A stretch of DNA of 64,000 bases from Pseudovirgaria hyperparasitica (taxonomy: Eukaryota): NCBI GenBank assembly GCA_010093815.1, contig ML996583.1. One strand, given 5' to 3'. Shown in pieces: positions 30,346 through 64,000 of this stretch. Made by a program: the position numbers and the translations under genes. The notes under the pieces were generated by a model. The model was not told the origin of the DNA, searched no databases, and worked only from the letters and a program-made list of their open reading frames with translations. Every line of letters begins with the position of its first letter. The stretch's first letter is position 1.

Positions 30346-31252
30346 TGAAGCGTTTTTTTTTGTTTGTGCGTGTGTGTGTGTGTTGTTTTGAATTCCAGAC
30401 CCAACGTACCTTATCAGAACTCTCAAAAAGCTTTCTCGCCTGGAGTAGTCATACCAATAATACACCCCAAAATAATGCGAATGTCAAAACGAAACTGTCT
30501 CTTGACGGCTAGTGTATCACACCGCCCTTGTAACAAAGTATAGGACAAGGTCCATGAGAATATTGACACTTCGCACTGTGGCACCCTAGAGCCAGTACCG
30601 ACAGTATTTTTTCTTCCGGGTGCTGATCTACGCTATCATACACACAATGGATAAATATAACATGATGTTCTTGGTACAGAAGGACGATGCGAATGCAAGT
30701 GCTCGTCTCCGCATTCATTTAAACTGGTCTTTGCACGCGTGGCTATCTTGGCGAGATGTATCCATGCTCTAATCAAGGTGATAGAGCCTGCTGAAATTGA
30801 CGGCATGGCTGTGCTATGATGAGGGCTAGTATCCAATGGCTGCAGTAGAGGTGACGAGAGCACGGAACACATGCGGGGGATTGCACTTTATGGGGTGGTC
30901 GCGTCGTGATTATTATCGGAAGGTACTTTGAGTGAGAGACACTGCTTCCTAAACGGGACTAGTGTCTAAACGGTTAAATAGCTTCGACTCTATCTCCTAG
31001 AACTTAGTTCTCTATATATAATTATAGAATATATTTAATAACCTTAATTATATCTACTTTCTACTTATAATAGATTATAAGCCCGGCGCTTTACTATAAA
31101 AGCCTTAAAATACCTCTTTATTAATAAAAACTATTATATTTTAATAAAAGTAAGTCCCTTCTCTAAAACTTAGTTATCTTATTAATCTTATTAAAGTTTT
31201 ACTTTAATTCTACTATCTTATTAACTCCCGGTCTCTATATTATTATCTATAC

Positions 31253-31490
31253 TATAAAGAGTAAAGACGTGGAATAGTAGTCTAACAGTTTATAGAGAGA
31301 CATAGGAATATATTTATAGAGTAATCTTACTCTTATACGAGGTTAATTCCTAACGAGTAGGAATTAGTTTATACGGTCTACTTATATAGTAACCTTACTT
31401 AACTTAGCTAACTCAACCTAGCTCTAGCCACTACGTGGCTACATGGATTAGAATAGTCTATATAGGTCCGTTATGGTTCCCGTCCTAATA
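31253..31490 (-). repeat. 3' LTR of A1 (type A LTR)
   Basis: Direct repeat of 38938-39175 and inverted copy of 56142-56379. Confidence 0.95.
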
Positions 31491-31969
31491 ATATTCTTCT
31501 TCTTTTTATGCTTCGCCCTAAAGTACTTAAGTATATATAATTCTAAGTCTCTATAATCTATTGTGTACCTATATATCTATAACTAAGTTCCTATGACGTT
31601 ATAACTATCCTTAATATAGGTAAACTCGAGATTCTAGTTTACTTTTATTAGTTTATACACGCGCTTATCCCTTACTTCGTGGCTACTACCTAGGATATAT
31701 AATTACTACTTTAGTTAAGTATATATTTAGCTTCGCTCGCCTTTAATTTTATTCTCTAGTATATCTACCTCGCTCTTAAGGTAAGTTATTAATTTATATA
31801 CTATCTTCTCTAGTTTAGGTTTAGAAGAGTCTATAGTAGTCTATTCTTATTAGAACCGGTCCTATATAACCTATTCGCGTTATTACGGTTACTAATTTAG
31901 CTTCGTTAATCGCCGTTAAGGGTAGATAAATATTCCTTCCTTAGATCTCTAGCTAACGTGTGTATATAG

Positions 31970-33006
31970 ATATCTAATACTAGTCCTATCTCTAAGCTTG
32001 CCTCCTTCTCTCGTAAGACTCGCTCTAAAGGTATCGCCTCCTCCCCGGCCACGCCGGCTAAGAAGCCTACCTATTATAGTAGTATAAAGGCGCGCTCTAA
32101 GTCGGAGAAGAGAGTAGCTAGGGCTACTACTACTACTACTATCTCTACTACTAATATAGCTACTAGTCGCTCTAATCTAGGTAATTCTAGTACTAAACTT
32201 ATGGATAAAGTAGTTATAGGTTCTCCTCTCGCTCTAAAGCGTACGCCGCCTACTCTACCTTCTCTAGAGGATAAAGAAGATCTTATTATAGATGATAATC
32301 GCGAGCCCTCGCGCTTACCTACGCTACCGCCTCGCTACTCTTCCTTCCGGTCTAATATAGACCGATTTAGTCGCTCTAGGTCCTTTTAGGACCTTAATAT
32401 TCGCTCTAAACCCTAGCCTACTAATAATAAGGCCTAGGTCGCCGAGGATACTAAACGTAGTCGCGGTTTACGCCATAGGAAAACGGCGAACTACGGTTTA
32501 ATATACTATAAGTATATTAAGGGCTATATAGCCGGCTCTAAATATCTCTTTCACTCTAACTCTAGTATTAGCTACTACTCTACTAACCGCGACAGGCCTA
32601 TACACCCTATCTTTACTCTACCTACCCGCTACCGCTGCTATACTATGACTAGTAAGACTTATCTATAGGTAAGTATAATAGACTATCTTAATCTAGTATA
32701 ATCTAAAGTGGTCTACGCTAATATATTCTTAGGTTTCTATATGTATATAAGATATATATAACGACCTTCGCGTCCGCGAGACCCTTAGGGGTCCTTATAG
32801 CTATCTATCTACTATATAGAGGGAGTTTAGGGAGCGCTATAAGCTCTTCCTAGAGGTTATTAAAGTATAAGTTACGAGCACGTTAATTATTTTTAACACC
32901 TATTAATTTTTCTAGCCGCCGTAAGATCCCTAGCGCCTAGGCTATCTATTCTAGGGAGTCTATTCTAGCTATAGAGGCCGTAGAGAGGATTCGCTCTATC
33001 CCCCCC
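31970..33006 (+). pseudogene. RIP-degraded intron-containing gene antisense to A1 (runs into the assembly gap)
   Basis: Consistent frame from ATA (ex-ATG) at 31970, broken only by RIP-type TAG/TAA. Introns 31781-31969 and 32669-32732 (GTAAGT..GCTAA[C/T]..TAG). Homologous to 62120-63423. Confidence 0.7.
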
Positions 33007-33301
33007 NNNNNNNNNNNNNNNNNNNNNNNNNNNNNNNNNNNNNNNNNNNNNNNNNNNNNNNNNNNNNNNNNNNNNNNNNNNNNNNNNNNNNNNNNNNNNN
33101 NNNNNNNNNNNNNNNNNNNNNNNNNNNNNNNNNNNNNNNNNNNNNNNNNNNNNNNNNNNNNNNNNNNNNNNNNNNNNNNNNNNNNNNNNNNNNNNNNNNN
33201 NNNNNNNNNNNNNNNNNNNNNNNNNNNNNNNNNNNNNNNNNNNNNNNNNNNNNNNNNNNNNNNNNNNNNNNNNNNNNNNNNNNNNNNNNNNNNNNNNNNN
33301 N
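33007..33301. other. Assembly gap (N run)
   Basis: Run of n characters inside A1. Confidence 1.
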
Positions 33302-36300
33302 CTAGTTTCTAGTAATTTAATTCTTAACTTAATAATATTATATATACGCTCGCTTAGCTTATAACTATCGGTTTCTATATTCTAATTTTCCTTAAGTCAC
33401 CTAAGTGTAGGCACCGTATATAAATTAGTTTATCTCTATGAATTCTATTAGAGTACCCGAACTAGTAGCCTAGTAGTTATCGGTTCGGGTACTCTAACCT
33501 TTTATATTTCGTATTAAGAGTTTAATTCTATAGTAGGGTACCTTTTTTTAGGTTCTTAGTCCTATATTTTTCTCGTGTATAATAGTCTATATTAGTCTAT
33601 TCTAGACTCTTCTATATTATTCTATTATAGTATATCACGTCGCGTTTCTAAAATGGTTATTTACGCTTTCTTCGCGTCTAGTAACTATATAACACTTAAA
33701 TTATAGGGCTACTATATAGAGTTTTCCTAGTGCGCGTCTAGATTTCCTAGTTTAGTACTTCGTTCTCTATAGTATTCTTCTTCTTTTTATAATAACCACG
33801 ACGTTACTATACTTACATTAATAATACGCTATTCTATATCTTTTACTTATACGCAGCCATTATAGAACTTAAGATATATACCGCTGGTTCCTAGGTGTCC
33901 TTATCCTTAGTATAGTCCTTCTAACGGATTCTATATTTCTAAATACCGTCTTTATTAATTCTATATTTAATAATATAGTCTACTTTAAACACGTCTAGTC
34001 TATCTTAGGGTATAATAGAGTATAACTACACGTTCATGCGGCCATACACGTTAGATCGAAATCTTTCGAGTAGTAAGACGTAGAACACGTTATAGATTCT
34101 TATATTACTTTCTAAGTCGAGCTCGTAGACTCTTATACCGATACGACGTTTAATTCGGAAGGGACTAGCCATTTTATAATCGAGCTTCTTATTTACTCGC
34201 GACGTTCGTATATTACGGACGTTAAGAAGAACCTTATCGCCCTCCTCATACGTCTAATCCTTAGCTAATCTATTATAGTACTTTATATACGAGTCGTTTA
34301 CTTATTAGATTATAGCGTGATAGTTACGTACGGTTTCGAAGATTTTAATCGCTAATTCCTAAGCGTGGACGTTCACGTCTGTTATTCGATTAAATTAGAC
34401 CGTCTAAGGCTTAAAACCTATCCTTAGACTACGTCCGAGGTTCGCCTAGAAAGGTATAATATCTATTATACTATAACGACTATTATTATATACGAACTCT
34501 ACTATACTTAGTAGGGAGGCCTAGTTATTCTACTTAAAATTATAGAATACATATAGATAGGCCTCGAGCGTCTAGTTCTATCGCTCTATCTAGCTATCCG
34601 TCTAAGGATGAAATACTATAGATATGTTCCTATTTATACTTACTATTTTATAGAATAACGTCTAGAATTTAGACGTGAAGATACTTCCTCGGTCCGTAAC
34701 GATCCTTTTTAGTATACCATGGACCTTAATAATCTTGTTCTAGAACACCTACGCTAGTTCTTTAGATATAATCGTCTTCTATACTAGAATATACCTAGAT
34801 ATCTTTATAAGTCTATCTATGATAATAAGAATAGATTTATAACTTATTCTAAGTATCTCGCTTAGAGGTAAGTTAACTATAAAGTCTATAGTAACGTCTT
34901 CCTATATAAAGAGGGGGGCTAAAAGAGGCTATAAATTTCTATATAGCTTATGTCTAGGGGCCTTCATTCTTTAATAAATCGGATAAGTAGCTATCTATTC
35001 TTCGACGTACTTAGGTATATCTTCCTAAAAATAGTACTAATAAATTAAGCTTAGGGTACGTATATACCTAAAGTATTCTACTAGGTTAGCGTTATAGTAT
35101 CGGCTAACTACGTTAAATCGCGTATTACCCGTTGGTATATAGTACTTTCTATTATAGTAAAGTAAGCCATCCATAAAGGTCCACTTATAGTCTACTTTAG
35201 TCTATAATAATCTATCTTACTATATTTTACGTAACTTTAAAACTATCGGGTCTATCTTCTATAGATCCACGATTAACTAGGCGAGGTTAATTAGATATTT
35301 ATACTAGGTATTATCGCCCTTCCCGATAGCGCTAATAAACGGCCTACTAGGGACTTCGGTACCGCGTCTTTAGTTACTAGCTTCGGTCTTAGAGATTCGA
35401 TTACTAGTATCGACGTTAGCATCTCGCTAATCGCCTAATAACTTAAAATCTAACCTCGTCCTTAAGAGTTAGGCCTATAGCTACTCTAGGACCCTATAGC
35501 TACTATAATTCTAGGCGCCTTCTTTATAGTTAGGTCTTCTTAATATTCTATTAGCTAGATTTATACTTCTAGATTAATAGTAGATTATAAAGTAAAAGTT
35601 CGTAAGCTACTTAGCCTATTAGATCTATTAATAGTTTAAAACTATCGTACTTATAAACCCCTTTAAGTTATAGTAATTAGTTAGTAACTTAACGTTATAC
35701 ATGGTACCTTTAAGATAATATCGCTACTATTTAAACGACTCTACTATTACTAGTAGCTCTTGGTTATAGATAGTATATCTAGTCTTAATATCAACTATTT
35801 TACGTAAGAAGAACGTAACTAGATACTATTAGACCTTTTTAGACTTAGTTAGTCTAGGCTAGGAGAGAATATCTAAGATTATAAATTCTAACGCGTCGGT
35901 TTCGACGTAGATAGGTTTAGTCAGGTCGAAGTACACTAGTAATAGGGTAGTTATAAATGCCTCTTTGATTTTCTTAAAGAAGGCCCTTTCGCCTTCTAAT
36001 AATTCTATAGGCTATGATTTAATATTATACTATTTCTATCTACCGCGGACCGTAATAGACGAATCTATAGTAGTAGTACACGCGTTAAGCGGTACTACTA
36101 GCTAGGAGAAATACTTAACGAATTTTTAGTAGTAATTAGCGAATCTAATAAAGACACGTATATCTTAAACCGATTTTAGTTTAGGCTAGTCCACGATAGT
36201 AGCGACTCTATCCCTTTCTATGGTTATACCTTAATTAGTAATAACGAAGCTAAGGAAGTTAACGTGGTCCTAGTGGAACTCGTATTTAGATAGCTTAATA

Positions 36301-38937
36301 TATAGCTTATATTTTTCTAGCCTATCTAGGACTACGCGTATATACTAGATATATTCTTCTTCGTTATTAGAGAAGATAAGGATATTATTAAGGTATACGA
36401 TGCACGTCGTGTTAAGTAGGTCTACTAGCGCGTTATTAATATACGCTTAGAAGGTTCCTAGCGCGTTAGTTAGTCTAAAAGGGACTACTATATACTCGAA
36501 GTATCTATAACGGGTCCTAAACGCCGTTTTCTACTTATCGCCCTTCTTAATACGTAGGCGGTAGTAGGTATTATATAGATCGAGCTTAGTAAAGATCTTT
36601 ACGCGCCCTAGTCTATTAATAGACTCGGAGATAAGAGGTAGTAGATAACGATTCTTTCGCGTAATATTATTTAGACTACGGTAGTTAATATATAGACGGA
36701 GACTCCTATCCTTCTTCTTTATAAAGAGGATTAGAGCTTTGGCTAGAGATATACTAGGCCTAATCTATCCTTACGTAAGGTTCTTTTTAATGTATTCTCG
36801 GAGGACCTATAGCTCGGGTTCTAATAGAGAGTAGATAGGTCCGTGTAGAGGTTATTAACTATCTTCGAGATTAATAGTAAGGTCGGTAGATTAGTATTAA
36901 GGTAATTTAGACGAGTCGATCGCTAACACGATATATTAGTATATTTTATACTAATATAGTAGGTTTTCGTCTACTTTAATACTAAGCTCTCTATTTTAAG
37001 TAAGTAAGAGGACGTAGATAGCGGAGATTACCTTTTCGTAGTCCTTCTAGAATTATTCGTCGTCGACTAGCTATACTAGGTTCTATTATAGTAGGTACAT
37101 GCGCCAGCCAGCTATTTTCTAGATAAAGTCTAGTTTCGGGTTATATTTTTCGAGCTACGGTATACCGAGGATTATATTAAAGGGACTATCTACCACGATA
37201 AAGGTTAAGTAGTAGGGTTTCTACTTCCCCCCGCTATCCTAGATACCGTATTTAATAGTATAGATACTCTACGATTTAATAGGACCGTTAATACCATAGA
37301 AGGTAGTACCTATTAGTACTTAAATATCGACGTTAAGTTCTCGTGCTCGTTAAGTCGATATAACGTTAGTAGCTAAACTACTATTAAGTATTACGGTCTA
37401 ATATTATCTACGAGGGACCTCGATAGGCCTAGCCTATAGTTCGATATACTAGTTAGCTAGTTATCCCTCTATTTTAGTTACACCTATAAGTTACGAGGGT
37501 TCCTTATAGATAGTTAGTTTTTTATATTATATACCGGGTAGTTAGGCGCGATATATCCTAGCTACTAGTACTTATAGTATATAACTAACTTAGTATCTAT
37601 ATTAGTATTCGGTGGTTTCCCTAAGCGGTACTCGGGTACTATATAATCTATTCTACTATAGGTGTAGTAGGTAACTTTAGATTATTTATATAAGTCGTTT
37701 CTCGCGTCTCGATATATCGACTAGTAGAAAGATCCGTGGTACGGGCCTCGTCTTCTTAAGTTCGTAGAGTAGTAGCGCCCATAAGGTATTCCGCGCGATC
37801 TATTACTAAACCGGTCCTCTTTAGATAATTTTATATCGGATTAGATTAATAGGGATAGTCGTGCGCCTATACGACGTTAGTTATTTATTATACGCTAATG
37901 TTATTCTACGAGATTCGCGAGTGCCTAAAGGTTGGTAGAGATAGATATTATAAGGTTAATACGTTCCTTTACGCTCGGGTTAAGGGACCTTTTAAAGTTA
38001 TCGCATTATCGAACTATATAATCTTCCTTAGCTTCTCTCTAAAGAGGTCGGAGGTATTTAAGAAGTTATAACGGGAATTATCTCTCTTACTATTAAGTCT
38101 TAAAGATATAGCTCTAAGCCTATTCGCGTCGCTCGGCTCTATTACTAAAGTATTAAAGAAGGAATTCGGTGAACGTGTCCTAGTTATACGCATCCTTAGG
38201 GTGTTTAATTCGATATACCATCTAACGTTCAGATAGTATTAGGTCTAGGTAGTTCTATACGAACCTAATCTTATTACTATTATTCGTAAATAGATAGAAG
38301 AATCGGCTATACTAGTAAGCCTATTCGTAAAAGCTCCTCCTGGTTTTACCGTCGAAGTAAGGTAGTTTCTTAGGCTAAGGTAACTAGGATAGTAATAGAC
38401 TTAGTTAGACTGTTTCGGCTTAAGTTAATCTATATTAGTATAGATTAGTTACTACTAGCACTAAAGCGCGTAGTGCGGCTTCGAGTCTAGCGGTTTATTC
38501 TCGCGCTTTATCGAGTTCACGAAGTTACTACTTAAGCTAAGCCTAACGCTATCTCTCCGTGTATAGCTTAGTATATATATTATTATAAGGCGTGGTTAAC
38601 GTTAGTCGGTTCTAACGAATTAATTCATTAACGTTAATAGGGTCTAGTCTTATAGTAAGGATAGGTCTAGTATAGTATAAACTAGACCGCGATAGAGTAT
38701 AATAGACTCCTTCCTTATTATCTAGGTAATCTTCTACGGTTATACGGAATACCGTACTAGTTATTAGTGCGATAGTCTATAGGGTATACTTATTAGTGGA
38801 GGTGGTTATAGGGAGACTATTCTCTTCGTTTAGATTTAGAGAGAGTCTCTCGTGTAAGGTAGTACTACGGGTATTATAGCGCCTAGTAGGAGCTATCTCT
38901 ATAAGCTACCGTTATACTATATAGAGAGGAATTAAAA

Positions 38938-39175
38938 TATATAGAGTAAAGACGTGGGATAGTAGTCTAATAGTTTATAGAGAGATATAGGAATGTATTT
39001 ATAGAGTAATCTTACTCTTATACGAGGTTGATTCCTAACGAGTAGGAATCGGTTTATACAGTCTACTTATATAGTGACCTCGCTTAACTTAGCTAACTCA
39101 ACCTAGCTCTGGCCACTACGTGGCTGTATAGATTAGAATAGTCTATATAGGTCCGTTATGGTTCCCGTCCTAACA
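38938..39175 (-). repeat. 5' LTR of A1 (type A LTR)
   Basis: Ends ...CCCGTCCTAACA on the plus strand (TGTTAGGACGGG on the element strand); followed by TSD TATAC. Confidence 0.95.
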
Positions 39176-39407: not shown

Positions 39408-39780
39408 TATGGAAGGCCGCTCCTGCAGCCCTACATGTATATGTCCCTAGCTCGATTACATGGCTTTATTATATATTTAAGGAGGGCGTTTTTCCTTGGT
39501 CATTCTACTCGGCGCGCTTCCCCCATCACTAATATTCGACTATTTAACCTTTTCTTACGTTTATAGGCCTCTATAGGTATTAATTATTAGACTTAGCTAT
39601 TAAAGAATTAATTAAGAGTATTATATAGACCCGTCCTATCGTAAAAGAGAACTAATAAGAAGTCGTACGTTCAAAGAGAACTTATAATACCTAGGAGAGA
39701 TACTTGTGAGTTCGTCGCGACTACTATACTAGGAATATAGCTATTTATAAAAGGGATACACGTGGCGATAGCTTACTATA
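39408..39780 (+). repeat. 5' LTR of G2
   Basis: T(A/G)TGGAAGGCCGCTCC...GCTTACTATA; direct repeat of 50476-50848. Confidence 0.95.
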
Positions 39781-40299
39781 ATTTTAGAGGTTATACCCGG
39801 ACTATAAACTTATAGGGGGAGATTAGGACTCCGAAACTAGCTTAGGGGAAGTATATGGCGTGCCTAATAAGGTAGTCTAGACTTACTAGATCGAAGCCAC
39901 GAGTCTAGAAAATAGGGAGTCCGGAGTCGCTAGGGGCTAGCCTCTTAAAAGTAGCCGTAAAAAGTATACGCATGCTAACACGGGTAATAGCGCGACTCGA
40001 AAATGTCTTAGGGGAATAGAATATAAAACAGGGCCAGATGAAGTAGTAAAGAAGAGTTTAAAAACGATAAATACAACCTATTTAGTACTACCATAGCTGT
40101 TATTTATAAACACGGCTACACGAGTATACCACTTTAGGAACGCCTTATACAAAGATAATAATATAAGTAGGATACCGTGAACCTTATATCGATGAAGACG
40201 ATAGTAATAGTTCACCTTATAAAGGGATTAGTTAACATAGAGAAGGGATAATAGATGTTATAGGTAGACGCATTAGGCTAACCTTTAGTTAAGGTAATC

Positions 40300-43200
40300 C
40301 CTTGACTAATAACCTTACCCCTAGCGTCTCTACTAGTATATCTACTACTAGTAATAGTGCGATAGAAGCTTAAAATAACGACCTAGTAACTTATAGAGAG
40401 ATACTTAACTTCTTCGTAGCATTTGCGCGATAAGGAAGGATAGTACCTCTATCTACCCTAGCCCCCGAGCGCTTTAAAGGAATAAATATTACGGCCTTCC
40501 TTCGGAAGTACGAGGACATGTATATAAACTATAAAGTTCCGCCTAATAAGAAGATAACCTCCCTACTATTATACTATAAGGACTATCTCCGTCCTACTAT
40601 TAAAGGAATAAGTAGGTTTTAGAAATAGTAGTGGGCCACGCTACGTAAAGAATTATTAAAGGAATTCTCTCTATTTAACTCTACCCTTAAGGAAGGCACC
40701 ATCTACTTTATCCGAAAATACGTGGAAATGGTTAAAGTAGACCTATCCTACTCTCTCTCTATGTACTACTCCCGGTATCGTGTTATTATAGAGAAACTTA
40801 CGGCTAAAGGAAGCCTAAGCTTATATTCGCGAATAGAGCTCTTCCTAGAAGGGCTGCCTAATAGTCTTAAGGCTCGGGCTATAGAGAAATGTTAACTCAT
40901 AATAGAAGTACATAGTTACGACTAGGTAATTATCTATGGCTTCGTATTACGAAAGGCTAGAGTACTTAAGGAACTAGCTCGTATTAATAAGTACTTAGCC
41001 GCATAAGAGCTAGCCATAGCTATATACCATAAATTAAAGATAGGGAGTAAGAAGACCGGCTTAGAAGAGTAGTTACATGAAGAAAGAAGAACTAATGAAT
41101 TTAACTACCCCTCTCTAGTCGTAGTATACGTCGCGCTAGAATTGGATAAGTTTAACGAGATAGTAGAGAGATTTAGTAAACTAGACCTTACGTTAATTAA
41201 GATAAAGTCCTACTTTACCTCTAATCCCTTATTTCTATCTCTTAAGAAGTACGAACCTAAGCTACTTTCGGCTATTATTAACTAGTAGGCGCGAAGGCTA
41301 AATCTTTTAGTATATCCCTAAGTATAAGGCATGCCTATAGAACTAACGTAAGTTTATCCATAGAATTATATATAGAATAGAGAATACGTCTCTACCCGAG
41401 ACTCCTAAGAAGGCGTTATAGCCTAGAATAGGCCTCGAAGACTAATTGTATACATTACGTACGGAGGAGATTACCTAATATATAGATATCCGGAGATAGT
41501 AGGATATATTAGAGACGGATTACTAAATATTAACAGGGTACGAGTATTCCAAGGGCGTTTCGGGGCGAATAGAGAAGAAATCCTATTACTACTCTCCTCG
41601 GTAGGGCTATAAGCTACTCTATAAGCTATCCGGAACTACGTAGTAATGGTTTAAAACGGCCTAAGCTAGTATAGAGGAGGAGTAAAGGTTTCTACGTCTA
41701 TAGTAAACATTAACGCTTTATAGAGAGTACTAGTATATAGTATTAGTATAAAACCTACGAAGGGTCCCTACTAGACCTTAGCGGATAGTAATTCGGAAGA
41801 AGAAGTTACGTCACCTAAGAGTAAGAAAGATAGATATATAGAATTCTACGAACGCTTCGACGTGGCTAGTAATAGATATATCTATAAGGAGATAGCCCTA
41901 GAAGAGCCCGCTATGCTCGTAATATCTAGAAGGGGGATTACGAAGAGTATACCTAATTATACTAAAGAAAGAAAGATCGCCTGTCTCCGCGGAATGCGTG
42001 AAGGGTAGTATATAAGAATTATTAAGGAATAGAAGGACGGCGAGAAGAGTAGCGACTAGAGAACGTCTAAATAAGAGCCAACGGCGCCGGAGGATAAGAT
42101 AGATAAAGGGGATGGCCTAAATCCTAGTTAAAAGGTATATATCTAAGGCGTTAAGCTTAATAACTATCTACACGAAGGATAGCGGCTAAGTATAGAAGCT
42201 AGCGAAGCATGGCTAGTGCGCGTTCTAGGGATAACTATAAATATTACTATTAGCGAACTATTAAGCCTTAATAGCGACTTATATCGTGCGGTATTCGAGA
42301 AGGGCGCCCCCGACTTTATAGCTAGAGAGGTCTATAAGACTCGAGAAGAGAGAGCCGAGAAGAAAGAAAGAAACGACTATACTATGGCTCCCGAGATAAA
42401 TAAACTTAACGTATTAGTACCCCTCTATACTATAGAGATAGCTATCACGTAATAAGATATTAATTAGCTTAAGGAAGGGATAGTAAGGCTAGTAGCTAAG
42501 TATCCGAGGTACCTTATAGAAGTTAGTCCTAAAAGGGCGACTAGTATAGTACTATTTAATAGTGGCGCATAGATAAATAGTATTCGACTAGATACTACGA
42601 GGCGTCTTAGGCTAGCGATATCTTCGCTTCTACTATATATAAAGAACTCGAGTTTAGTTAGCGCTACTTAGTATAGTACTCTATTTATAGGAATAGTATA
42701 GTAATACCCTATCCGCATAGATCGGATCGTTATAGCTACTTTAATATTTATATATAGCGAACTTAATTATAACCTTATCCTAGGGGAGCTATATACTAGA
42801 TAGGCCTTACTTACGGTGTAGAGGTTAGCCTCTAGGTAAGTACTCTTAATAGTCTACTCCGTATATAGATAAGAACGTATAACCTTTAAAACTAGTCTAG
42901 ACGAGTATATTCTAGTCTTAGAGAAGGAGGGTAACTCCGTGGCTAGAGACTAACTATATAGCGGAGTATATCGCCGGAAGCTGGAGTTAAGCCGGATTAT
43001 TAGTTAAGGGCTACCCTTAACTAATAATCCGTACTAAATAGAGTCCGGTAAACCTACTAATAAAGGGGATAGGCTATATTTTTATACGTATATAGAAATA
43101 AGTTATATAGAGTTACTTTCCGAGAAAATCCGGCCTAAAAATATTACTTAGTTATCGAGAAAAGATGACTTAGCTACCCTAGTTACGGCGGTAAGGTACG

Positions 43201-46200
43201 CTACCTTTATATATAAATAAGGCACGATAATAGAACGGCTTATAGTAGACTCTACCGGCCTCTTAAGACGGTATTCATCTAGGGTATTAAAGGGATTTAG
43301 TATGGCTACCATGTATAAAAGAAAGGGAGTTAAAGTATACCCCGTGGATAACTCCGAAGCCTACCGAAAGGTTCCTAGAAATCTATTAGGGTATCTAGAC
43401 TAGCGTAAACGAGTAATCGCATAGTAGATACTTCTTCTAGCCGTCTACCTAGGCCTTAATACGTTTAATAGACTAATAGAGCCTTAAAGGGTAACTATCC
43501 CGCTAGGAACACGTCTAACGCCTCTATATATAAGTTAGCTAAAGATTAGAATAGAGCTACGTCCCGCGGAACTTAAGTTACTATATATAATCTTATTATA
43601 TCGCGAGGAAGCACTAGTATAGAAATTCTTATACCTTAGTAAATTTAACGAAGAGGTGGTATCTCCGTAGGAGATCCGAACGGTAGAACATAAGATATAG
43701 TAGGCTAAGAACTTTAATATTTCTAGAGCCCTTTATAGAAAGGTACTTACGATTCTAAAAGAGCGTCTTAATAGCGGAAGGCTCGAGCCCTATAGTAGTC
43801 CTTATTAAAACGCCTATTTTCTCGTGGAAAAGAAGAAGGAAGCTAATAAGGAACGAGATTATAGATTAATCAATTCGGCGATAGAAATTAACCGAGTCAC
43901 TATTCGTAATATGGCCACGCCGCCCTTATATAAAGAGTTCTCGGAGCACTTTACGGGGATAGCCGTCTTAACATTTACTAACTTCTTCTTAGGATATAAT
44001 TAGATTCTATTAGTAGAGTATTACTAAGACTTAACGGGGTTTATAACGCCCCTAGAATTACTACACGGGATAATATTACCTTAAGAGGCTACTAATTTAG
44101 TAGCTTAGTTCGTTAGAATTATATTAACTATTATATAAGAATATATCCCGGAGAGGGCTCTACTATTCCTAGATAACTTAGATATTAAAGGACCTATAAC
44201 GAAATATAACTCTAAGGAGGCCCTGCCTAGAATTCGTAAGTATATCCTAGAATATTTAATTAACGTGGATAAGGTTCTCGCGGATATAGAGCGCGCCGGA
44301 TACGCCCTAAGTAGTAAGAAGACTTAGTAGTATATTAAAGCCACTAACGTTATAGGATACGTCTACGATATTAAAGGGAGGCGACCGAGTAATAAAAAGG
44401 TTACTACTATTAGGGACTGGAAACCCTATAAAAACACGACGAATATGCGAGCCTTCCTTAGCGTTTATATATATTTCCGGATATGGATCCCCGGGTACGC
44501 TATTATCGCATCGCCGCTATTTATACTATTAAAGAATAAATCGGCCTAGTAGTAGATAGCTAAGGAGTAGACCTCGATAGACGCGCTAAAGATAGCTCTA
44601 ACTACTACTCCCGTACTAATAACGTTACGGTACGGGATAGGTATAGGAGATATAATTCTAGTAGTAGACTCTAGTAACGTTAGGTAGGGAGCTACATTAA
44701 TATAGGAGAATAAGAATCGTAAACGTTAGCTATCGCGGTATAATAGAGGAATATAGTTAAAAGCTAAGAGAAACTACGATACCGTGAAGCTAGAGTACCA
44801 AGCCCTCCTCCACGCGTTATAGAAGTTCTAGTAATATCTCTATAGTATATACTTTATTATAGAAATAGACGCGAATACTCTAGTTACTTAAATTAACCGC
44901 ACTATAACTAACTTACTAGGGGCGCTCGTTACTAGGTAGCTCGCGTAGATTTAGCTATAGAACTTTATAGTTAGGCACGTACCTAGAAAGCGTAACGTAG
45001 TCGCCGACGGTATCTTACGGATATATAAAGGAGAAGAACTACTAGACGTCCCTACCTTTAACCTAGACGAGTTTATAGATATGGCTCTATATATAGACGT
45101 ACTAGAGACGTCGTTAATCAAGCCCGTTAGCGGGAGAGATTACATGATAGGGATACTCGACTATACCGCCATTAAGTCTCCCTTAATAGATAAATATAGC
45201 GATAAATAGTAGAGGATTACGAAATACCTTACTATACTTAAGAGGCTAACCGACCTAACTAACTAAGTGTATAAGGCCTTTATAACCGACTACCTAAAGT
45301 TCCTTATATATAACTAAATACTCTAGCGGAGAGGAGATAGACATCGCTAACATACACGAGTAATTAAGGATCCGAATACTAGGGCGCGTATAATTACCGC
45401 TACTTATAACGAGATAGATTATAGAGGTAGCGAAGGGACCCTCGGAAGGATTAAGGATAAGTATTAGTAGGTAGGTATACATAGAGACGTGTAATAGCAC
45501 GTGAAAATCTATAATAAATATTAACGACGAAGTAAACTCCTTGGAGGTCTTAATAAAGGGCTCTACCACGTTATAACGCCTGTTCTTTAGTAAAGAATAT
45601 ACTTAGACGTAACGACGCTACTACCTTCTATAGGGTATAGTAAAGTGGTATCTATACGAGAATAGCTAAGCGGATAGACTAAGGCGGAGGCATGTACGGC
45701 GGCTACGTCCATAGTCGTCGTAAAGTTCCTCTTTAAGAACGTAATCTATAGATATAGAATTATTCCTAAAATCACCTATAACGGTAGTAGAGAAAATATG
45801 GGTGCCATAGAGGAGCTCCTCTAACTCTATGGAATTTATTAGAAGGTTACGTCTACGTATAATCCCTAAGTAAATAGAATTATTAAGAGAAGTTTTATAC
45901 TACTCGCTAATGCTCTTGCGAAGATAACTAATGGCGGATTTAAGAACTGGCCCGGCTACCTCTATACGGTTATCTAGGTAGATAGAATAACGACACGTGC
46001 TAGTATAGGGTATAGTACCGTATACCTCGTGCTCGGCCATAAACTAATCATGCCTATTAAAGTCGAATTTAAGTCGCTCTAAATGCTCCCTTAGGACGAG
46101 GTGTAATCGACGTCCGACTTACTCGCTCTTTGAGCTAGATAACTTAAGAGAAGATCCGAGGATCTTAAGGAGGCCTATATCTACGCGATACGAACGCGTA

Positions 46201-46650
46201 AGGAATCGAGAGAGGCATGGAATAATAACCATTACCTTTATTAAGAGTCGTTACTAGTTAATACGATTATCCTTCTTTACGACTCGTAGTAATAGAAGGA
46301 TATAGAGCGGAAGCTAAGGTAGCATTAGAGGGAGCCATATAAAATCTAGTCCGTGTTTAATTATACTTATAAGCTCGCGGAGCTTAATAGAGCCATACTT
46401 AGAGAGACGTTTCCTAGCTATAGGTTAAAGAAATATTTTATAAGAAATATAAGTAACGAGAGTTACGATAAGCCCTTACGACTACTAATTAGAAGAATTA
46501 CCGAGGAAAATAAGGAGAGTGGCGATAAGGAAAACTATTATAAATAACTTACGGAATACCTCGACGACGCTACACGAACCCGGGTGGAAGTGGTAATTCC
46601 TACTCCGTAAGACTTTAATAGAGAAGAATATTTACGTTTCCCTAGAATTA
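40300..46650 (+). pseudogene. gag-pol relic of G2 (approximate ends)
   Basis: Gag-like FKGINITAFLRKYEDM (~40473); protease LF(N/D)SGA (~42552); RT FF(L/S)GY(N/D)(*/Q)I (~43983) and FLD(N/D) (44166-44177); RNase H VVDSS..G(*/W)GA (~44661); integrase YNP(*/Q).N(R/G) (~45858). Confidence 0.9.
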
Positions 46651-47343
46651 ACATCTTCTTCTAGGGGATAGAAGTTTTTTTAAGGAGGGAAGGAATACTT
46701 ATAAAAGTAGTCTTATAACGATAAACTCTATTATCGAAAAAGGACGATGAACTCCATCATCGAAAGAGGATAATAAACCCTATCATTACTATAAAATAAT
46801 AAAACTTATTATTAAAGTAAGTAATGCTCGAAAGAAGATATAATGGCGTTTACGCGAATTCCACCTACTATATATTAAAGCCGGTCGTGTAATCGAAGCC
46901 TACCTATCGAAGGCCCATTTCGTTACTATAGAACGGGCCCTATTAGGAACTAATAAGGAAGAAAAGAAGGAGGAGGTATAGGAGAAAAAGATACTTATAG
47001 GAAGTCTTATAAGGATGAGAATATACCCGGTATCTATTTATTTATAGATTCCGCTATATACCTAGTGGATACATTCATTCATAGATTTCCTATATATCTA
47101 GTATATATTTATTCATAGATTCGACACGTATACGGGCCTACGGCCGTTAGTAAGGATCATTTATAAAAATTACTATATACCCGGCATTCAAGGAGGTATA
47201 AAAAGAGAACTTAAGATAGTATATAACTCTTCCCTCTTACACCTCTCTATACCTCCTTAATTAATAAAACCTCCTCCTCTACTTCCGCCTCGCTTAACTA
47301 TCTCTCCTTAGAACGTAACTCGCTAATAGAACCGATAATAATA

Positions 47344-50277
47344 ATGGCCCCGCTAAAAAAGAAAACGCCTACCTATAAAGAGTTATAAGATCGTTAAGTA
47401 CTAATAAGATAGACGCGGTCCTAGTTAAGAGTCATAAGTACTAAAGTAGAGCCATTAACGGCTATCGTGGTATCGAGGCCATCTACTACTCCGTATAGAT
47501 AGGCTATAGAAGCTACGGAAGTAAATAAGTCTACCATTAACCGAATTATCGCCATCTAGAACCCGCAAGAGCGATAGGACTATATTCTAGATATATTTAA
47601 TAATCTTCTTCATATTACCAGCCTTATAGAATAGCTCTTAAGTAGTATAGTTAACCTCTTCTAGGAAGTAGGAGCCGTAATAGGGTATAGTAAGGTAAAG
47701 ATTAACTTCTCCATTCCGAAAGAAGTCCACGAGATAATTCGTTGTAGAAGAGATACCAACTCCCATATTCTAAAAGCTAAAAATATAATCCTATAAAACT
47801 AGCGAAAAGACCTCCCTAATAATAACGGCTAGTTACTCTAATCCGCCCTCGGATAGCTCTAGTAAATATAGAACTTCATGGAAAAGCTAGTAGCGCTCTT
47901 ATAAATACGGACATGGGTAAGAGCGAGGAACTAGTTAAATATATCTCTATAGTCCCGAATCGGCCAGGGATAGAAGAGAAGGGGAATTAAGGTATATCTT
48001 TAGAGCTCTAATATCGATACCGCTCTAGCTAGTAATAGTAACGAGGATAGTCTATCTCTCTAGTAACTCTCGAACTACCCTAGCTAATAAAATGAACTAA
48101 CGTTCCATAATAAGACGGGACTTATTATCCCCGCTAGTTAATAGTTATAGATAAGTAGAATGGTTCATAGGCCCGTCGAATACTACCTATAAATCAAAGA
48201 GATAAGTATATCGCCTCCGCCTTAGACCTTACCGTCGCTAAAACTAGCGTAGGTAACGCCCGTGGTAAAGTCCCCTCCATAAAGTACGCCTCCTAGTTTA
48301 GTAGTATGTTATCTCTTCGAAGCTAGTTATCCGTTTAAAGTAAGTATTCCTCCTACTACTACTAGTATACGTCCCTTACCGGGCCATGCGAGGATCTCTT
48401 TAGTACCTATTACGGCCATACTAATAAAACCCACTCGCGGACGTGCCTCATCTACCGGCCCTTAGTAATTACCAGGGGCGCCTACACGATAATCCCTAGT
48501 TATTCTTAGTTCGTACCCTAAGACGATAGTATCGGTTAAGGAAGAGGACGAGCCTAAGAAGTATTAATGCGCGCCTTTAGTGACGAAGACTTTTAAGGTA
48601 GCTATATTATTAAAGAAGAATTTCACGAGCATTAAGGGAATAGCCCTACTAGTACGCTAGAAAGCGTAGATAGGTAACATGGCTATTCCATATAAAGTCT
48701 ACTATAAGCATTACTAAGACGTGGCTAGAAAGAATGATATACTTATTAGCGTGTTCTACTTGAACCTAGTAGCGAGACTTAAAATGGTATATAAGTTTAG
48801 AGATAACGTGGGGGCCCTTAAAGTTTATAAGGACTACTACACCTAGTTCGCGAAGTACGCGCGGCCACCTCATCTAATAGAGGCATTAGATATCTATTAT
48901 TACTAGGCCCTAGAGACCCCGAAGTAAGTTATTAATATTAAAACTATCCTTACTAGTATCGTATTTATAATTTAGAAGAAGGACGGTAGGATAGGTAGGT
49001 AACTCTTCGACGAGTAGAAACGTACTAGAAGTATTAATATTAAAGGGCTCTTCGAGCCACTTAAAAAGACAACCTCTATACTTAATAAGAGTATTCTAGA
49101 ACTCGCGAGGGATGAATTTAATATATATAAGTACCACCAGTGTATATTTAATAAGAAATCGAACTACGGCTGGCTACGAACTATATACCACTCCTATATC
49201 TAATAGTTTATTAGGTAATATCTACTTTACTAGCTCACCTATATCGCTCTTCGGCCTAATCTTAACTACTATCTAATCTCGTACCCGTACTATGCGAAGT
49301 CCTAGGATAGAGGCGATAAGACGGGTTTTAAGTATCTCGATAACGCTATTAATCGAATCCTCGATTCTAGCGATAGATACGGGTTTAATATAATCTAGGG
49401 GAGTATTAGTCTCGACGACGAACGAAGTAACGACTATACTATAATCGTTCCCCGCTCCTATAAGTTCTTAAATAAATAGTAGTCGAAGGCTAAGCTCCGC
49501 GAGGGGGTCAATCGAAACGGTATAATTACGGCTATTAACGATAAGATCTATAATACGGACGATAAGAAACGATTTAGTCCCTTCGTCCTAGTCCTCTACT
49601 AGTCCCTTAAAGTATATATCTCTAGCCCACTAATAATATACGGCGCCTAGGGTCCCGTAAAGGGTAGAAGACGTATAATACTTCTATAGTATATCGCAAT
49701 TAGCCCTAATCATATAATAATAGAAGTACCTAAAATAGGCATATAGGAATAACTCGTAGTAGCTTATAGGAATTTAACTCCGGGACCTACGTCTCCGTCG
49801 GGATTTTCTAATAAATATAGCGCGATTCCTTTTGCCTTCCTAGCCGTAGTTTAACTCCCGAGTTTTAACGCCGTTAGTAACACATTAGTCAGCCGTAAAA
49901 GATAGAATAGCTAGAAGGTAAAAGAAGAGGTAGCTACGTGGCTTAACGTAAGTCCTTAATAACTTAAAGCTAAGGTAGACACCTAGTTTAAGGAGGGCTC
50001 GAGGGTATTCGTAGAGACCTTTAAGAAAATAGTAAGGTAGGAAAGGCTAGTCTATGGGGATAGGTCATTCTAGAAGGAATTTAACAAGGCGCGCGCCGCT
50101 AAGCGGCTAATTAATTTTAAGAAATTCGAGCCCGACGCGGGCCTAGATAATATTAAAGAGAACTTCTATAGATAGGAGAGGCCTAACAAACTATCCGACG
50201 AGGAGGAATCTAACCTCTCTAAGATAAGCGACACGATTCTTTAGGAGCTGGCTCGCGACCTTAAGTACTAAGATTAG
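47344..50277 (+). pseudogene. RIP-degraded cargo ORF (~980 codons) with a C-terminal PhyH-like 2OG-Fe(II) dioxygenase domain
   Basis: The ATG at 47344 is in the same frame as the conserved-looking block at 49081-50277, where the stops are TAA/TAG. It reads NYGWLRT.YHS, ALRP, LISYPYYAK, T.F.(H)LD, I(Q)GSISLDDE, (H)GA.GP..GRRR..L(P)(W), SPSGFSN.Y.AIPFAF. Confidence 0.75.
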
Positions 50278-59100: not shown

Positions 59101-62100
59101 AAGGGACAGGGTCGCTACTATCGTGGACTAGCCTAAACTAAAATCGGTTTAAGATATACGTGTCTTTATCAGATTCGCTAATTACTACTAAAAATTCGTT
59201 AAGTATTTCTCCCGGCTAGCAGTACCGCTTAACGCGTATACTACTACTATAGATTCGTCTATTATGGTCCGCGGTAGATAGAAATAGTATAATATTAAAT
59301 TATAGCCTATAGAATTATCGGAAGGCGAAAGGGCCTCCTTTAAGAAAATCAAAGAGGTATTTATAACTACCCTATTACTAGTATACTTCGACCTAACTAA
59401 ACCTATCCGCGTCGAAACCGACGCGTTAGGATTTATAATCTTAGGTATTCTCTTCTAGCCTAGACTAACTAAGTCTAAAAAGGTCTAATAGTATCTAGTT
59501 ACGTTCTTCTCACGTAAAATGGTTAATATTAAGACTAGATATACTATCTATAACTAAGAGCTACTAGTAATAGTAGAGTCATTTAAATAGTAGCAATATT
59601 ATCTTAAAGATACCATATATAACGTCAAGTTACTAACTAATTACTATAACTTAAAGGGGTTTATAAGTATAATAGTTTTAAACCATTAATAGGTCTAATA
59701 GACTAAGTAGCTTACGAACTTTTACTTTATAATCTACTATTAACCTAGAAGTATAAACCTAGCTAATAGAATATTAAGAAGACCTAACTATAAAGAAGGC
59801 GCCTAGAATTATAGTAGCCATAGAGTCCTAGAGTAGCTATAGGCCTAACTCTTAAGGACGAGGTTAGATTTTAAGTTATTAGGCGATTAGCGAGATGCTA
59901 ACGTCGATGCTAGTAATCGAATCTCTAAGACCGAAGCCGGTAACTAAAGACGCGGTACCGAAGTCCCTAGTAGGCCGTTTATTAGTACTATCGGGAAGGG
60001 CGATAATGCCCGGCGTAAATATCTAATTAACCTCGCCTAGTTAATCGTAGATCTATAGAAGATAGACCCGATAGTTTTAAAGTTACGTAAAATATAGTAA
60101 GATAGGTTATTATAGACTAAAGTGGACTATAAGTAGACCTTCGTGGACGGCTTGCTTTACTATAATAGAAAGTACTATATACCGATAGGTAACGCGCGAT
60201 TTAACGTAGTTAGCCGATACTATAACGCTAACCTAGTAGAATACTTTGGGTATATACGTACCCTAAGCTTAATTCGTTAGTACTATTTTTAGGAAGATAT
60301 ACCTAAGTACGTCGAAGAATAGATAGCTACTTATCTAATTTATCAAAGAACGAAGGCCCCTAGGCACAAGCCATATAGAAATTTATAGTCTCTTTTAGCC
60401 CCCCTCTTTATATAGGAAGACGTTACTATGAACTTTATAGTTAACTTACCTCCAAGCGAGATACTTAGAATAAGTTATAATTCTATTCTTATTATCGTGG
60501 ATAGACTTATAAAGATATCTAGGTATATCCCGGTATAGAAGACGATTATATCCAAAGAACTAGCGTAGGTATTCTAGAACGAGATTATTAAGGTCTATAG
60601 TATACTAAAAAGGATCGTTACGGACCGAGGAAGTACCTTCACATCCAAATTCTAGACGTTATTCTACGAAATAGTAAGCATGAATAGAAATATATCTATA
60701 GTATTTCATTCTTAGACGGATGGCTAGATAGAGCGATAGAACCAGACGCTTAAGGCCTATCTACGTATATTCTATAATTTCGAGCAGGACGACTAGGCCT
60801 CCCTACTAAGTATAGTAGAGTTCGTATATAATAATAGTCGTTATAGTACGATAGATATTATACCTTTCTAGGCGAACCTCGGACGTAGTCTAAGGATAGG
60901 TTTTAAGCCTTAGACGGTCTAATTTAATCGAATAATAGACGTGAACGTCCACGCTTAGAAATTAGCGATTAAAATCTTCGAAACCGTACATAACTATCGC
61001 GCTATAATCTAATAAGTAAACGACTCGTATATAAATTACTATAATAGGTTAGCTAAGGATTAGACGTACGAGGAGGGCGACGAGGTTCTTCTTAACGTCT
61101 ATAATATACGAACGTCGTAAGTAAATAAGAAGCTCGATTATAAAATGGCTAGTCCCTTCCGAATCAAACGTCGTATCGGTATAAGAGTCTACGAGCTCGA
61201 CTTAGAAAGCGATATAAGAATCCATAACGTGTTCTATGTCTTACTACTCGAAAGATTTCGACCTAACGTATATGGCCGCACAAACGTGTAGTTATACTCT
61301 ATTATACTCTAAGATAGACTAGACGTGTTCGAAGTAGACTATATTATCGAACATAGGATTAATAAAGACGGTGTTTAGAAATATAGAATCCGTTAGAAGG
61401 ACTACACTAAGGACGAGGACACCTAGGAACTAGTAGTATATATCTTAAGTTCTATAATGGCTGCGTATAAGTAAAAGATGTAGAATAGCGTATTATTAAT
61501 ATAAGTATAGCGACGTTATAGTCGTCGTAAAAAGAAGAAGGATGCCGTAGAGAACGAAGTGCTAAACTAGGAAATCTAGACGCGCACTGGGAAAACTCTA
61601 TATAGTAGCCCTATAATTTAAGCGTCGCACGGTTACTAGACGCGAAGAAAGTATAAATAACCATTTTAGGAACGCGACGCGATATACCATAATAGAATAA
61701 TATAGAAGAGTCTAGAATGGACTAACATGGACCATTATACACGAGAAAAACATGGGACTAAGAACCTAAAAAAAGGTACCCTACTATAGAATTAAACTCT
61801 TAACACGAAATATAAAAGGTTAGAGTACCCGAACTAATAACTACTAGGCTACTAGTTCGGGTGCTCTAATAGAATTTATAGAGATAAACTAATTTATATA
61901 TGGTGCCCACACTTAGGTGACTTAAGGAAAATTAGAATATAGAAACTAATAGTTATAAGCTAAGCGAGCGTATATATAATATTATTAAGTTAAGAATTAA
62001 ATTACTAGAAACTGGCCAACAGGTATCTAAACGGTCTAAAAAGGACTAAAATGGATAGAAACTAGGTAGATAGAGCTAATATATACTATATAGAAACCCT

Positions 62101-62119
62101 AGTAAATAGAGCCATAGAG

Positions 62120-63423
62120 CTACTCCTCTATCTTATTATTACTCTTAGAGCGTAGTAAATAAACTAACTAAGTAATAGAGCGACGGAGGTTAGAGACCTT
62201 ATCCTCTAGAGTAACTACGCGCTCGGTTAGAGTCTAGTAAGATAATAACTAAGCGCTAGAGCGGAGCGACTAGACCTAAAGTTAGCTAATACGGTCTAGA
62301 ATAATCTAGAATAGAATATATACCCTCTTACGAGGTAACTTAGAAGGAGAACTAGTAGATCTTTTATAAGACCCGTTAGTAGCACGAGACGGGTAGAAAG
62401 AAATAGTATAAATCTCTTCTACGGCCTTAGTAGCTAAAACTAACTCCCTAGAATAGATAGCCTAAGCGCTAGAAATCTCGCGGCGACTAAAAATTATAAG
62501 CTAAGGTTAATAATAATTAATAGTTTCTAAACTTATACTTTAATAACCTCTAGGAAGAGCTTATAGCGCTCTCTAAACTCTCTATATATAGAAGCTAGAT
62601 AACTACTAGAACTACCGAGAGTCTCACGGACACGAAGATCGTTATATATATTTTATATATAAATAGAAACCTAAAAACGCATTAGCATGGACGACTTTAG
62701 ATTACCCTAGACTAAAATAGTCTAATAGACTTACCTAAAGATAAACTTTACTAAGGATAGTATAGTAGTAGTAGCGGGTAGAGAGCTTAAAGATTAGATA
62801 TATAGATCTATTATAGTTAGTAGAGTAGTAGCTAATACTAGAGTTAGAGCGGAAGAGATATTTAGAGCTAGTTATATAAGCCTTAATATACTTAAAGTAT
62901 ATTAAACTATAGTTCGCCGTTTTCCTATAGCTAAACCGCGACTATATTTAGTATCTTTAGTAATCTAGGCCTTATTATTACTAGAGCTAGATTTAGAGTA
63001 AATATTAAGGTCCTAAAAGGACCTAGAGTAACTAAGTTAGTCTATATTAGACCGAAAAGAGGAATGGCGTTTAGAGCGAGGCGGCGAAGGTATAAACTCT
63101 TAATTATTATCTATAATAAGATCTTCTTTATCCTCTAAAGGAGTTAGAGTAGATAGATAGCGCGAGTAGATATAGATAGACTTTATAGCTACCTCTTCTA
63201 TAATACTAGTACTAGAATTACCTAGATTAGAGCGACTAGTAGCTACGTTAGTAGTAATAGTAGTAGTAGTCTTAGCTACCTTCTTCTCTAACTTAGAGCG
63301 CGCCTTTATACTACTATAATAAGTAGATTTTTTAGCTAGTATAGCCGGGGTAGAGGTAATCTCTTTAGAGCGAGTCTTACGAGAGGAGGAGATAGACTTA
63401 GAAATAGAACTAGTATTAGATAT
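62120..63423 (-). pseudogene. RIP-degraded antisense multi-intron gene, type B copy
   Basis: Introns on the minus strand at 63612-63424 (189 nt) and 62734-62671 (64 nt) have the same lengths as in A1; a further intron at 62323-62276 ends GCTAACTTTAG. The last exon reads LTERVVTLEDKVSNLRRSIT (coiled-coil-like). Confidence 0.7.
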
Positions 63424-63910
63424 CTATATATACACGTTAGCTAGAGATCTAAGAGTAGAATACTTATTTAGCCTTAAAGATAATTAAAGAAGCTAAATTA
63501 GTAACTATAATAACGCGAATAGATTATATAGAACTAGCTCTAATAAAAATAGACTACTCTAGACCCGAACGGATCTAAACTAAAGGAGATAGTATATAAA
63601 TTAATAACTTACCTTAAGAGTAAGGTAGATATACTAGAGAAGAAAATTTAGAATAAGAGAACTAAATATAAGCTTAGTTAATATAGTAGTTATATAACCT
63701 ACGGAGCTATCTCTAAGGTAGTAGCTAGAAAGTAAGAGATAAGCGCGTATATAAATAAAAGTAAACTAGAGCTAAAGTTTACTAATATAAAGGCTATTAA
63801 TAACGTTATATAGATTTAATTAGATATATATATAAATATAACGCTTATAGAATTATAGATTTATATATAGCTAAGTACTTTAGGGCGAAGCATAAAAGGA
63901 AGAAGAATAT

Positions 63911-64000
63911 TATTAGGGCTAATACTAGAATAGACTTAACTAGACTACTATAGTCTAGTATAGTCCGTGATAGGTGGACCTAGGTTAAGTTAGCTAGAAT
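63911..64000 (+). repeat. 3' LTR, type B (truncated by the window end)
   Basis: Matches 51468-51557 apart from transitions; preceded by PPT AAAAGGAAGAAGAA. Confidence 0.92.

Follow-up and report, generated by a model that had tools for sequence, protein, structure and literature searches.

A 64,000-nt stretch of contig ML996583.1 from the fungus Pseudovirgaria hyperparasitica (assembly GCA_010093815.1), referred to here as the window, contains a degraded retrotransposon, element A, whose 3' region carries an open reading frame (ORF) on the strand opposite to gag-pol. This frame, together with the intron-like intervals that divide it, probably represents a real antisense, spliced, protein-coding accessory gene, preserved in the window as copies from two chromovirus subfamilies that were killed by repeat-induced point mutation (RIP). 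The layout of the region, its open frame, its splice-like signals, and its retention across two subfamilies are established features of these copies. From them, we propose that an antisense RNA would be made and spliced, that a protein would be produced, and that it would have the functions considered below.

A preliminary description of this DNA had placed an antisense frame with intron-like intervals between the chromodomain and the polypurine tract of the element. Such a frame occurs at 31970-32668 on the plus strand, between the polypurine tract (31489-31512) and the end of the chromodomain at ~33863, the position of antisense genes of the aORF-3R/brtn type. The distance from pol to the polypurine tract is ~2.3 kb and is broken by an assembly gap at 33007-33302. 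The intervals described earlier at 31781-31969 (189 nt) and 32669-32732 (64 nt) start with GTAAGT, contain GCTAAC or GCTAAT, and end in TAG, and a diverged second copy, designated type B, has intervals of the same lengths at 63612-63424 and 62734-62671. The parts of the proposed gene are listed below, first for element A and then for type B; all comparisons rest on copies inside the window.

31513..31780, plus strand: putative promoter and non-coding exon 1 (5' untranslated region, UTR); the A/B alignment of 31490-31780 shows no common frame
31781..31969, plus strand: putative intron 1, 189 nt; GTAAGT ... GCTAAC ... TATAG; length a multiple of 3
31970..32668, plus strand: putative exon 2, 233 codons, from ATA to the TAG at the donor; includes the 139-codon open frame
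32669..32732, plus strand: putative intron 2, 64 nt; GTAAGT ... GCTAAT ... CTTAG
32733..32866, plus strand: putative exon 3, 134 nt; open frame, charged, probably helical
32867..32915, plus strand: putative intron 3, 49 nt in A; donor ATAAGT, branch TTAAC, acceptor TAG
32916..33006, plus strand: putative exon 4, ended by the assembly gap; 3.3% transversions
63424..63612, minus strand: putative intron 1 of type B, 189 nt; signals and length as in A
62735..63423, minus strand: putative exon 2 of type B; 107-codon open frame, 1-nt deletion near 62931
62671..62734, minus strand: putative intron 2 of type B, 64 nt; signals and length as in A
62537..62670, minus strand: putative exon 3 of type B, 134 nt; open frame
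62487..62536, minus strand: putative intron 3 of type B, 50 nt; donor ATAAGT
62324..62486, minus strand: putative exon 4 of type B; open frame
62276..62323, minus strand: possible intron 4, 48 nt, in frame; GTATAT ... GCTAAC ... TTTAG; B copy only
62014..62275, minus strand: putative exon 5 of type B; charged, heptad-like, end uncertain, with low-confidence helices

An open frame in RIP-mutated DNA

The antisense frame lies in DNA of strongly altered composition. The G+C content is ~49% at positions 1-30000 of the window and 28-40% at 30000-64000, and the edge near ~30000 is sharp, leading from DNA with normal dinucleotides and ~49% G+C into an AT-rich nest of RIP-mutated transposons. In the 30000-64000 compartment, the observed/expected ratios are 0.03-0.23 for CA and TG and 1.7-1.9 for TA. 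This dinucleotide pattern is that of near-saturating RIP of the CpA type in a fungus. Because RIP yields transitions only, selection was measured on transversions.

When frames that cross the run of N in element A are excluded, the two longest frames without a stop in the RIP-mutated 34 kb span 139 codons (A) and 107 codons (B). Stops are rare in a single phase: the three phases contain 1, 10, and 23 stops at 31970-32389 in A, and 1, 12, and 19 in the homologous segment of B. Among 1000 dinucleotide shuffles that kept the strand content, two reached the observed length for A and none did for B. The open frame is not the product of chance. Stops private to B align with the Arg codons CGC and CGA in A, a pairing consistent with RIP having acted on an ancestral open frame. 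Indels in exon 2 comprise one 9-nt in-frame difference and a single 1-nt deletion in B. The former (32127-32141 versus 63262-63270) lies within a run of ACT codons (Thr) and is the sole exon indel longer than 1 nt. In contrast, RIP has left the gag-pol frame of the element with ~9% stops, a share not lower than in its non-coding phases.

Element A, which hosts this frame, spans 31248-39173 with its gag-pol on the minus strand and is a Ty3/gypsy chromovirus degraded by RIP. A single minus-strand frame has Pfam matches to RVT_1 (1.3e-19), RT_RNaseH_2 (1.9e-12), and SH3_Tf2-1 (2.5e-12). The match to Chromo in the RIP-mutated frame is weak (E 0.0091, 16.3 bits, under the Pfam cut-off of 25.1), and the best database relatives of pol carry PF00385. 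Element A thus combines reverse transcriptase, RNase H, integrase, and a C-terminal chromodomain in one frame with flanking long terminal repeats (LTRs), as expected for Ty3/gypsy chromoviruses. Its parts, and the repeat that closes the second copy, are as follows.

31248..31488, minus strand: 3' LTR of element A; 93% identity to 38933-39173, ends aligned
31489..31512, minus strand: polypurine tract abutting the 3' LTR, taken directly from the sequence; plus-strand reading TAATATTCTTCTTCTTTTTATG
33007..33302, no strand: run of 296 N, an assembly gap in element A that conceals the rest of exon 4, intron 4, and exon 5
33303..39173, minus strand: rest of element A, with the end of pol including the chromodomain, integrase, RNase H, reverse transcriptase, gag, and the 5' LTR (Pfam and repeats)
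38933..39173, minus strand: 5' LTR of element A (repeat comparison)
63908..64000, plus strand: start of the type B 3' LTR, which continues past the end of the window; 95% identity to 51465-51557

The two accessory regions belong to elements of different types. The stretch 56142-62013 differs from element A by 398 transitions and only 3 transversions, without gaps, and is therefore of the same type as A, parted from it by RIP alone. Somewhere within 62014-62410, the stretch hidden by the gap in A, this A-type sequence switches to another type. The gap-equivalent stretch measures ~397 nt, and the gap conceals the point at which identity between the two copies drops from 93% to 79%. Over the accessory regions, an alignment of A with B counts 222 transitions, 93 transversions, and 38 gap columns. 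The LTR that closes the second copy matches 51465-51557 at 95% identity but the A-type LTR at only 61%. A truncated copy at 51465-56078 is likewise of type B, with 0.7-7% transversions per 300 nt and no gag-pol indels relative to A; it breaks off before the accessory region. On this comparison, the window carries the accessory region of two truly diverged subfamilies. The 93 transversions between accessory regions, against 3 between the A-type gag-pol copies, bear out the earlier proposal that the frame was kept across two subfamilies. Searches of the 64-kb window by blastn and tblastx revealed no further copy of the accessory region.

The arrangement of 51465-64000 is chimeric: a B 5' LTR with gag-pol (51465-56078) is followed by an A-type 5' LTR with internal region (56142-62013), the B accessory region, and the B 3' LTR from 63908. 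This looks like a type A element inserted into a type B element with subsequent recombinational deletion, although an assembly artefact is possible. The window also holds another, different LTR retrotransposon at 39408-50775 on the plus strand, which at 11.4 kb is unusually long. Its 300-nt LTRs (39408-39707 and 50476-50775) are 94% alike, and a match to RNase H (E 1.5e-08) identifies it as a reverse-transcribing element.

Transversions between the two subfamilies are distributed unevenly along the elements:

Exons 2-4: 49/913, 5.4%
First 180 nt of exon 2: 2/180, 1.1%
Hypervariable segment 32210-32329: 20/120, ~17%
Intron 3: 9/50, 18%
gag: 67/1200, 5.6%
pol: 62/3000, 2.1%
LTR: 26/228, 11%, with 72 gap columns

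The accessory exons diverge approximately like gag and less than the LTR, and values for exons 3 and 4 are 4.5% and 3.3%. Synonymous transversions account for 14 of 40 in the exon 2 frame, where 20% are expected (binomial P=0.018), and this excess is limited to that frame; the other five frames give P values from 0.18 to 0.89. In exon 3, A and B agree at 35/44 amino acids in the proposed frame versus 30/44 and 29/44 in the other two. The region as a whole was thus under constraint, with moderate, not decisive, evidence that the constraint acted on a protein.

Splice-like signals and the predicted product

Introns 1 and 2 match fungal spliceosomal introns as they stand, in their donor, CTRAY branch, YAG acceptor, shortness, and continuity of frame. 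Their GCTAAC or GCTAAT motif lies 10-20 nt ahead of the end of the interval. The 64-nt intron 2 shifts the frame from 0 to 1, as the flanking open frames demand, and the introns of 64 nt and 49/50 nt join open frames correctly in both A and B. Introns 3 and 4 fit the same pattern only if ATAAGT and GTATAT are taken as RIP-mutated GTAAGT and GTATGT; in intron 3, the ATAAGT donor would have arisen from GTAAGT by a G-to-A change in a TpG context. A third intron had been placed earlier at ~32866-32915. The interval is present, but its start moves to 32867, since position 32866 is T and not G. The resulting reading, 32867-32915, leads exon 3 into the sole protein-like frame downstream. Between A and B, the bases of the intron 3 signals (donor, branch, and acceptor) are conserved at 14/14 positions versus 18/35 in the spacer, and a 1-nt A/B indel sits within this intron. 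The interval at 62323-62276 agrees with its original description in length (48 nt) and signals (GTATAT, GCTAAC, and TTTAG).

Upstream of intron 1, the A/B alignment of 31490-31780 contains 26 gap columns and 8.2% transversions. Its indels, of 1, 1, 1, 4, 15, and 1 nt, are mostly not multiples of 3 and break the frame between copies; this segment is best read as 5' UTR. Exon 2 starts in both copies with ATA, which may be a RIP-mutated ATG.

In the mechanism that we propose, the antisense RNA would begin either in the 3' LTR or in the ~270 nt that separate the polypurine tract from 31780, and at least three, probably four, short spliceosomal introns would be removed from it. Being antisense in the genomic RNA, these introns would survive retrotransposition. 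The product would comprise ~400 residues. Its basic, Ser/Thr-rich N-terminus, which resembles a nuclear-localisation region, would be followed by a variable linker, then by a short cluster containing Cys/His, and finally by a tail that is charged and helical. A near-perfect hairpin (33448-33497) lies between the end of pol and the presumed 3' end of the convergent antisense gene; it has a 16-bp outer stem and an inner stem (-30.7 kcal/mol, z -6.3, with 0/200 shuffles as stable). The hairpin recurs in the other A-type copy at ~61822-61867 with one RIP change.

Exon 2 encodes the basic, Ser/Thr-rich N-terminus, followed by a hypervariable middle (32210-32329) and a cluster dense in Tyr (TAY) codons at 32492-32545, which in A reads IYYKYIKGYIAGSKY. 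The sequences of exons 3-5 are charged and probably helical. AlphaFold2, run without an alignment on the C-terminal part, returned low-confidence helices (mean predicted local distance difference test score 42.8, predicted template modelling score 0.23), a model too poor for a fold search. The dimerisation helix proposed in the preliminary description would fall in this part and is a tentative reading. A Pfam scan of the antisense frame gave no match, and RIP would mask one.

The preliminary description had read the TAY codons as former TGY codons in a C-x2-C...C-x2-C-x6-C pattern, a degenerate zinc cluster. The comparison of copies does not sustain this reading. Both copies have TAY at all five codons of the pattern, which are hence uninformative; because both copies are near-saturated for CpA RIP, the TAY, TAA, and TAG codons that they have in common are not decodable. 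Where the other copy does settle the ancestral state, the 10 codons resolve as 5 CGY (Arg), 3 CAY (His), and 2 TGY (Cys), and the only demonstrable Cys codons are the two TGY at 32636 and 32742. The spacing of a Zn2Cys6 cluster (C-x2-C-x6-C-x5-12-C-x2-C-x6-8-C) is also absent. With every TAY taken as Cys, the region would read Y-x3-Y-x2-Y-x3-Y-x5-Y, then ~39 residues, then Y-x-C-Y-x6-Y, which leaves the two halves too far apart for this motif. A CCHC knuckle (PF00098, C-x2-C-x4-H-x4-C) was rejected as well. The best reading of IYYKYIKGYIAGSKY in that sense is C-x2-C-x3-(H)-x5-C, and both copies have Ile (ATA) where the knuckle has its canonical His, a change from His that is impossible by RIP. 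The six TAY codons within 18 residues are most readily interpreted as a small Cys/His cluster. The role as transactivator or anti-silencing factor that the preliminary description put forward is unsupported.

Relation to brtn and competing explanations

Searches for relatives of the predicted protein were negative. A phmmer search of 1.84 billion representatives, with exon 2 as the query and X in place of its stops, yielded no accepted homologue and no fungal protein; its sole match, a 4625-residue tandem-repeat protein aligned in 32 weak stretches, was judged a repeat artefact. In a word-based protein search with the C-terminal part of type B, two candidates were examined and none scored. The word PAKKPTYY in metagenome contig L001 stands in an otherwise unrelated frame of a contig dense in overlapping ORFs, the word TRYRCYTM in viral contig L002 (55% G+C) stands in a frame with stops, and both were rejected. 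Another viral-contig query found no relative. The pol search returned 327 proteins at E<=1e-10, the best with 34% identity over 98% of the query; local identities of 42-45% extended over ~43% of it. Named matches came from Histoplasma, Pseudozyma, Rhizoctonia, Tilletia, Podosphaera, Armillaria, and Colletotrichum, and among the matches there was no close intact relative and none named Boty. Since even pol lacks a close intact relative in the protein collection, and since the accessory protein evolves fast, the missing homologue says little.

The closest published layout is that of the Boty-like chromoviruses, known from Botrytis cinerea and, as relatives, from Sclerotinia and Monilinia, which carry the antisense gene brtn in the interval between pol and the 3' LTR (PMC8365987, PMC7264820, PMC4227169, PMC5987419). 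The gene of element A resembles brtn in its setting in a fungal chromovirus, its location on the opposite strand, its position between pol and the 3' LTR, and its presence in several copies or subfamilies. However, the copies described here are RIP-dead, the model has at least three introns, and the likeness seen is one of layout. The primary paper on brtn is reportedly that of Zhao et al. (2011, Virology 417:248). A literature search for fungal antisense retrotransposon genes found none besides brtn. The antisense gene of element A is probably a further case of this published layout, and our best guess is that its protein would be a nuclear, nucleic-acid-binding helper or regulator of element expression or copy number, as brtn may be.

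In a more novel version, the gene would be unrelated to brtn and would be a second antisense accessory gene of fungal chromoviruses, one with several introns and acquired independently. Its product would be a nuclear regulator that binds metal and contains a coiled coil, retained by selection in at least two subfamilies. We hold this version as a tentative possibility.

Several observations weigh against a spliced coding gene of either origin. The 34 kb of RIP-mutated DNA contain GTAAGT at 14 plus-strand and 18 minus-strand sites, and 10 of the 14 on the plus strand have a loose branch and acceptor downstream. Because the motif is common and usually accompanied in this way, the intron signals alone are weak evidence. 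Fully conserved 6-mers make up 36.7% of those compared between copies, and three conserved donors are expected by chance at ~0.05. Introns 1 and 2 (4.2% and 6.2% transversions) are as conserved as exon 2 (5.8%). Intron 1 has no gaps and shows the top in-frame amino-acid identity (51/63); it could be coding or have another function. The A/B amino-acid identity of exon 2 is not frame-specific (0.68, 0.68, and 0.64 by phase), and transversions at codon positions 1, 2, and 3 number 11, 11, and 18, a weak excess at the third position. The P value of 0.018 for synonymous transversions is uncorrected for six frames. Three stops in exon 2, including the TAG at the donor, are common to both copies, and their origin by RIP is not demonstrable. 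The frame occurs in 2/2 window copies that retain this part of the element, and two copies are a small sample.

The near-equal conservation of 'introns' and 'exons', and an amino-acid identity without frame specificity, are what a conserved non-coding region would show, whether as a cis-acting 3' part of the genomic RNA or as the template of an antisense non-coding RNA in double-stranded RNA regulation. The open frame would then be a by-product of a pyrimidine-rich, low-complexity antisense strand. The plus strand is pyrimidine-rich at 32001-34000 (GC skew -0.16, AT skew -0.13), no protein homologue was found, and regulatory antisense RNAs are discussed for LTR retrotransposons (PMC7264820). 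However, strand composition does not account for stops being avoided in one phase only in both copies, and shuffles with the same strand and dinucleotide content very seldom match the observed length. The excess of synonymous transversions in the proposed frame only, and the 9-nt indel that keeps the frame, likewise argue against a non-coding origin, which we consider unlikely.

A coding origin outside the element would reconcile the ordinary fungal intron signals with the lack of likeness to any retroelement domain. The region would be a passenger with no role in the element: the common ancestor of the subfamilies would have captured, in reverse orientation, part of a host gene or of another mobile element, so that the introns and the frame would be remnants of the donor gene. 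Transduction of genes by LTR retrotransposons is known (PMC7264820). However, the region was kept in two subfamilies, and its exons evolve no faster than gag and slower than the LTR, intron 3, and the variable linker; this retention and these rates favour selection acting in the element lineage. The 1.84 billion representatives included no recognised host paralogue or other protein of the kind, a negative result weakened by RIP damage. We regard a passenger as improbable.

Least probable of all is a real antisense ORF that is unspliced or partly spliced, ending after ~232 residues at TAG 32666-32668 or at TAA 32867-32869 with the downstream 'exons' as 3' UTR: the TAG that exactly ends exon 2 and the TAA that ends exon 3 occur in both copies, intron 4 is in frame and seen in a single copy only, and confidence in the predicted tail fold is low, but a TAG before GTAAGT is expected from CAG|GTAAGT under near-saturating CpA RIP, exons 3 and 4 are conserved in contrast to intron 3 (4.5% and 3.3% versus 18% transversions), and conservation within intron 3 is specific to the signals.

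Antisense genes of other retroelements and biological meaning

Antisense genes in a comparable position are not confined to fungi. Plant Ty3/gypsy elements carry antisense ORFs between pol and the 3' LTR, among them gene23 of maize Grande and the ORFs of rice RIRE2, Silene Retand, and Phaseolus PvRetro13 (reviewed in PMC7264820). These ORFs resemble the proposed gene of element A in position, in orientation, in their lack of database homologues, and in a suspected nuclear or regulatory role. A further likeness may be that they are conserved to about the same degree as other proteins of their elements. In contrast, they occur in plant hosts and in non-chromovirus or Tat-like lineages, and no relation in sequence is expected.

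Among retroviruses, HBZ of human T-cell leukaemia virus type 1 (HTLV-1) is a spliced antisense gene whose product, a nuclear regulator, combines a basic region with a helical part for dimerisation. An antisense promoter is located in the 3' LTR of HTLV (PMC7264820). The proposed gene of element A would share with HBZ an antisense transcript starting at or near the 3' LTR, its splicing, and a basic and helical nuclear regulator as product. However, HBZ belongs to an animal retrovirus, the two have no homology, and no signature of a basic leucine zipper was found in the predicted protein.

Extra genes of LTR retrotransposons are the closest counterpart of retroviral accessory genes, and no antisense one has a known function. 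If real, a multi-intron antisense gene in two subfamilies would be the second fungal example beside brtn, and such genes would be recognisable even in copies wrecked by RIP. The practical value of the present copies, dead and only two in number, is limited; their main use is as a motive to seek intact copies in related genomes and spliced antisense reads. Should the gene prove unrelated to brtn, fungal LTR retrotransposons would have gained spliced antisense accessory genes repeatedly, a retrovirus-like innovation that gene callers and repeat maskers would have overlooked.

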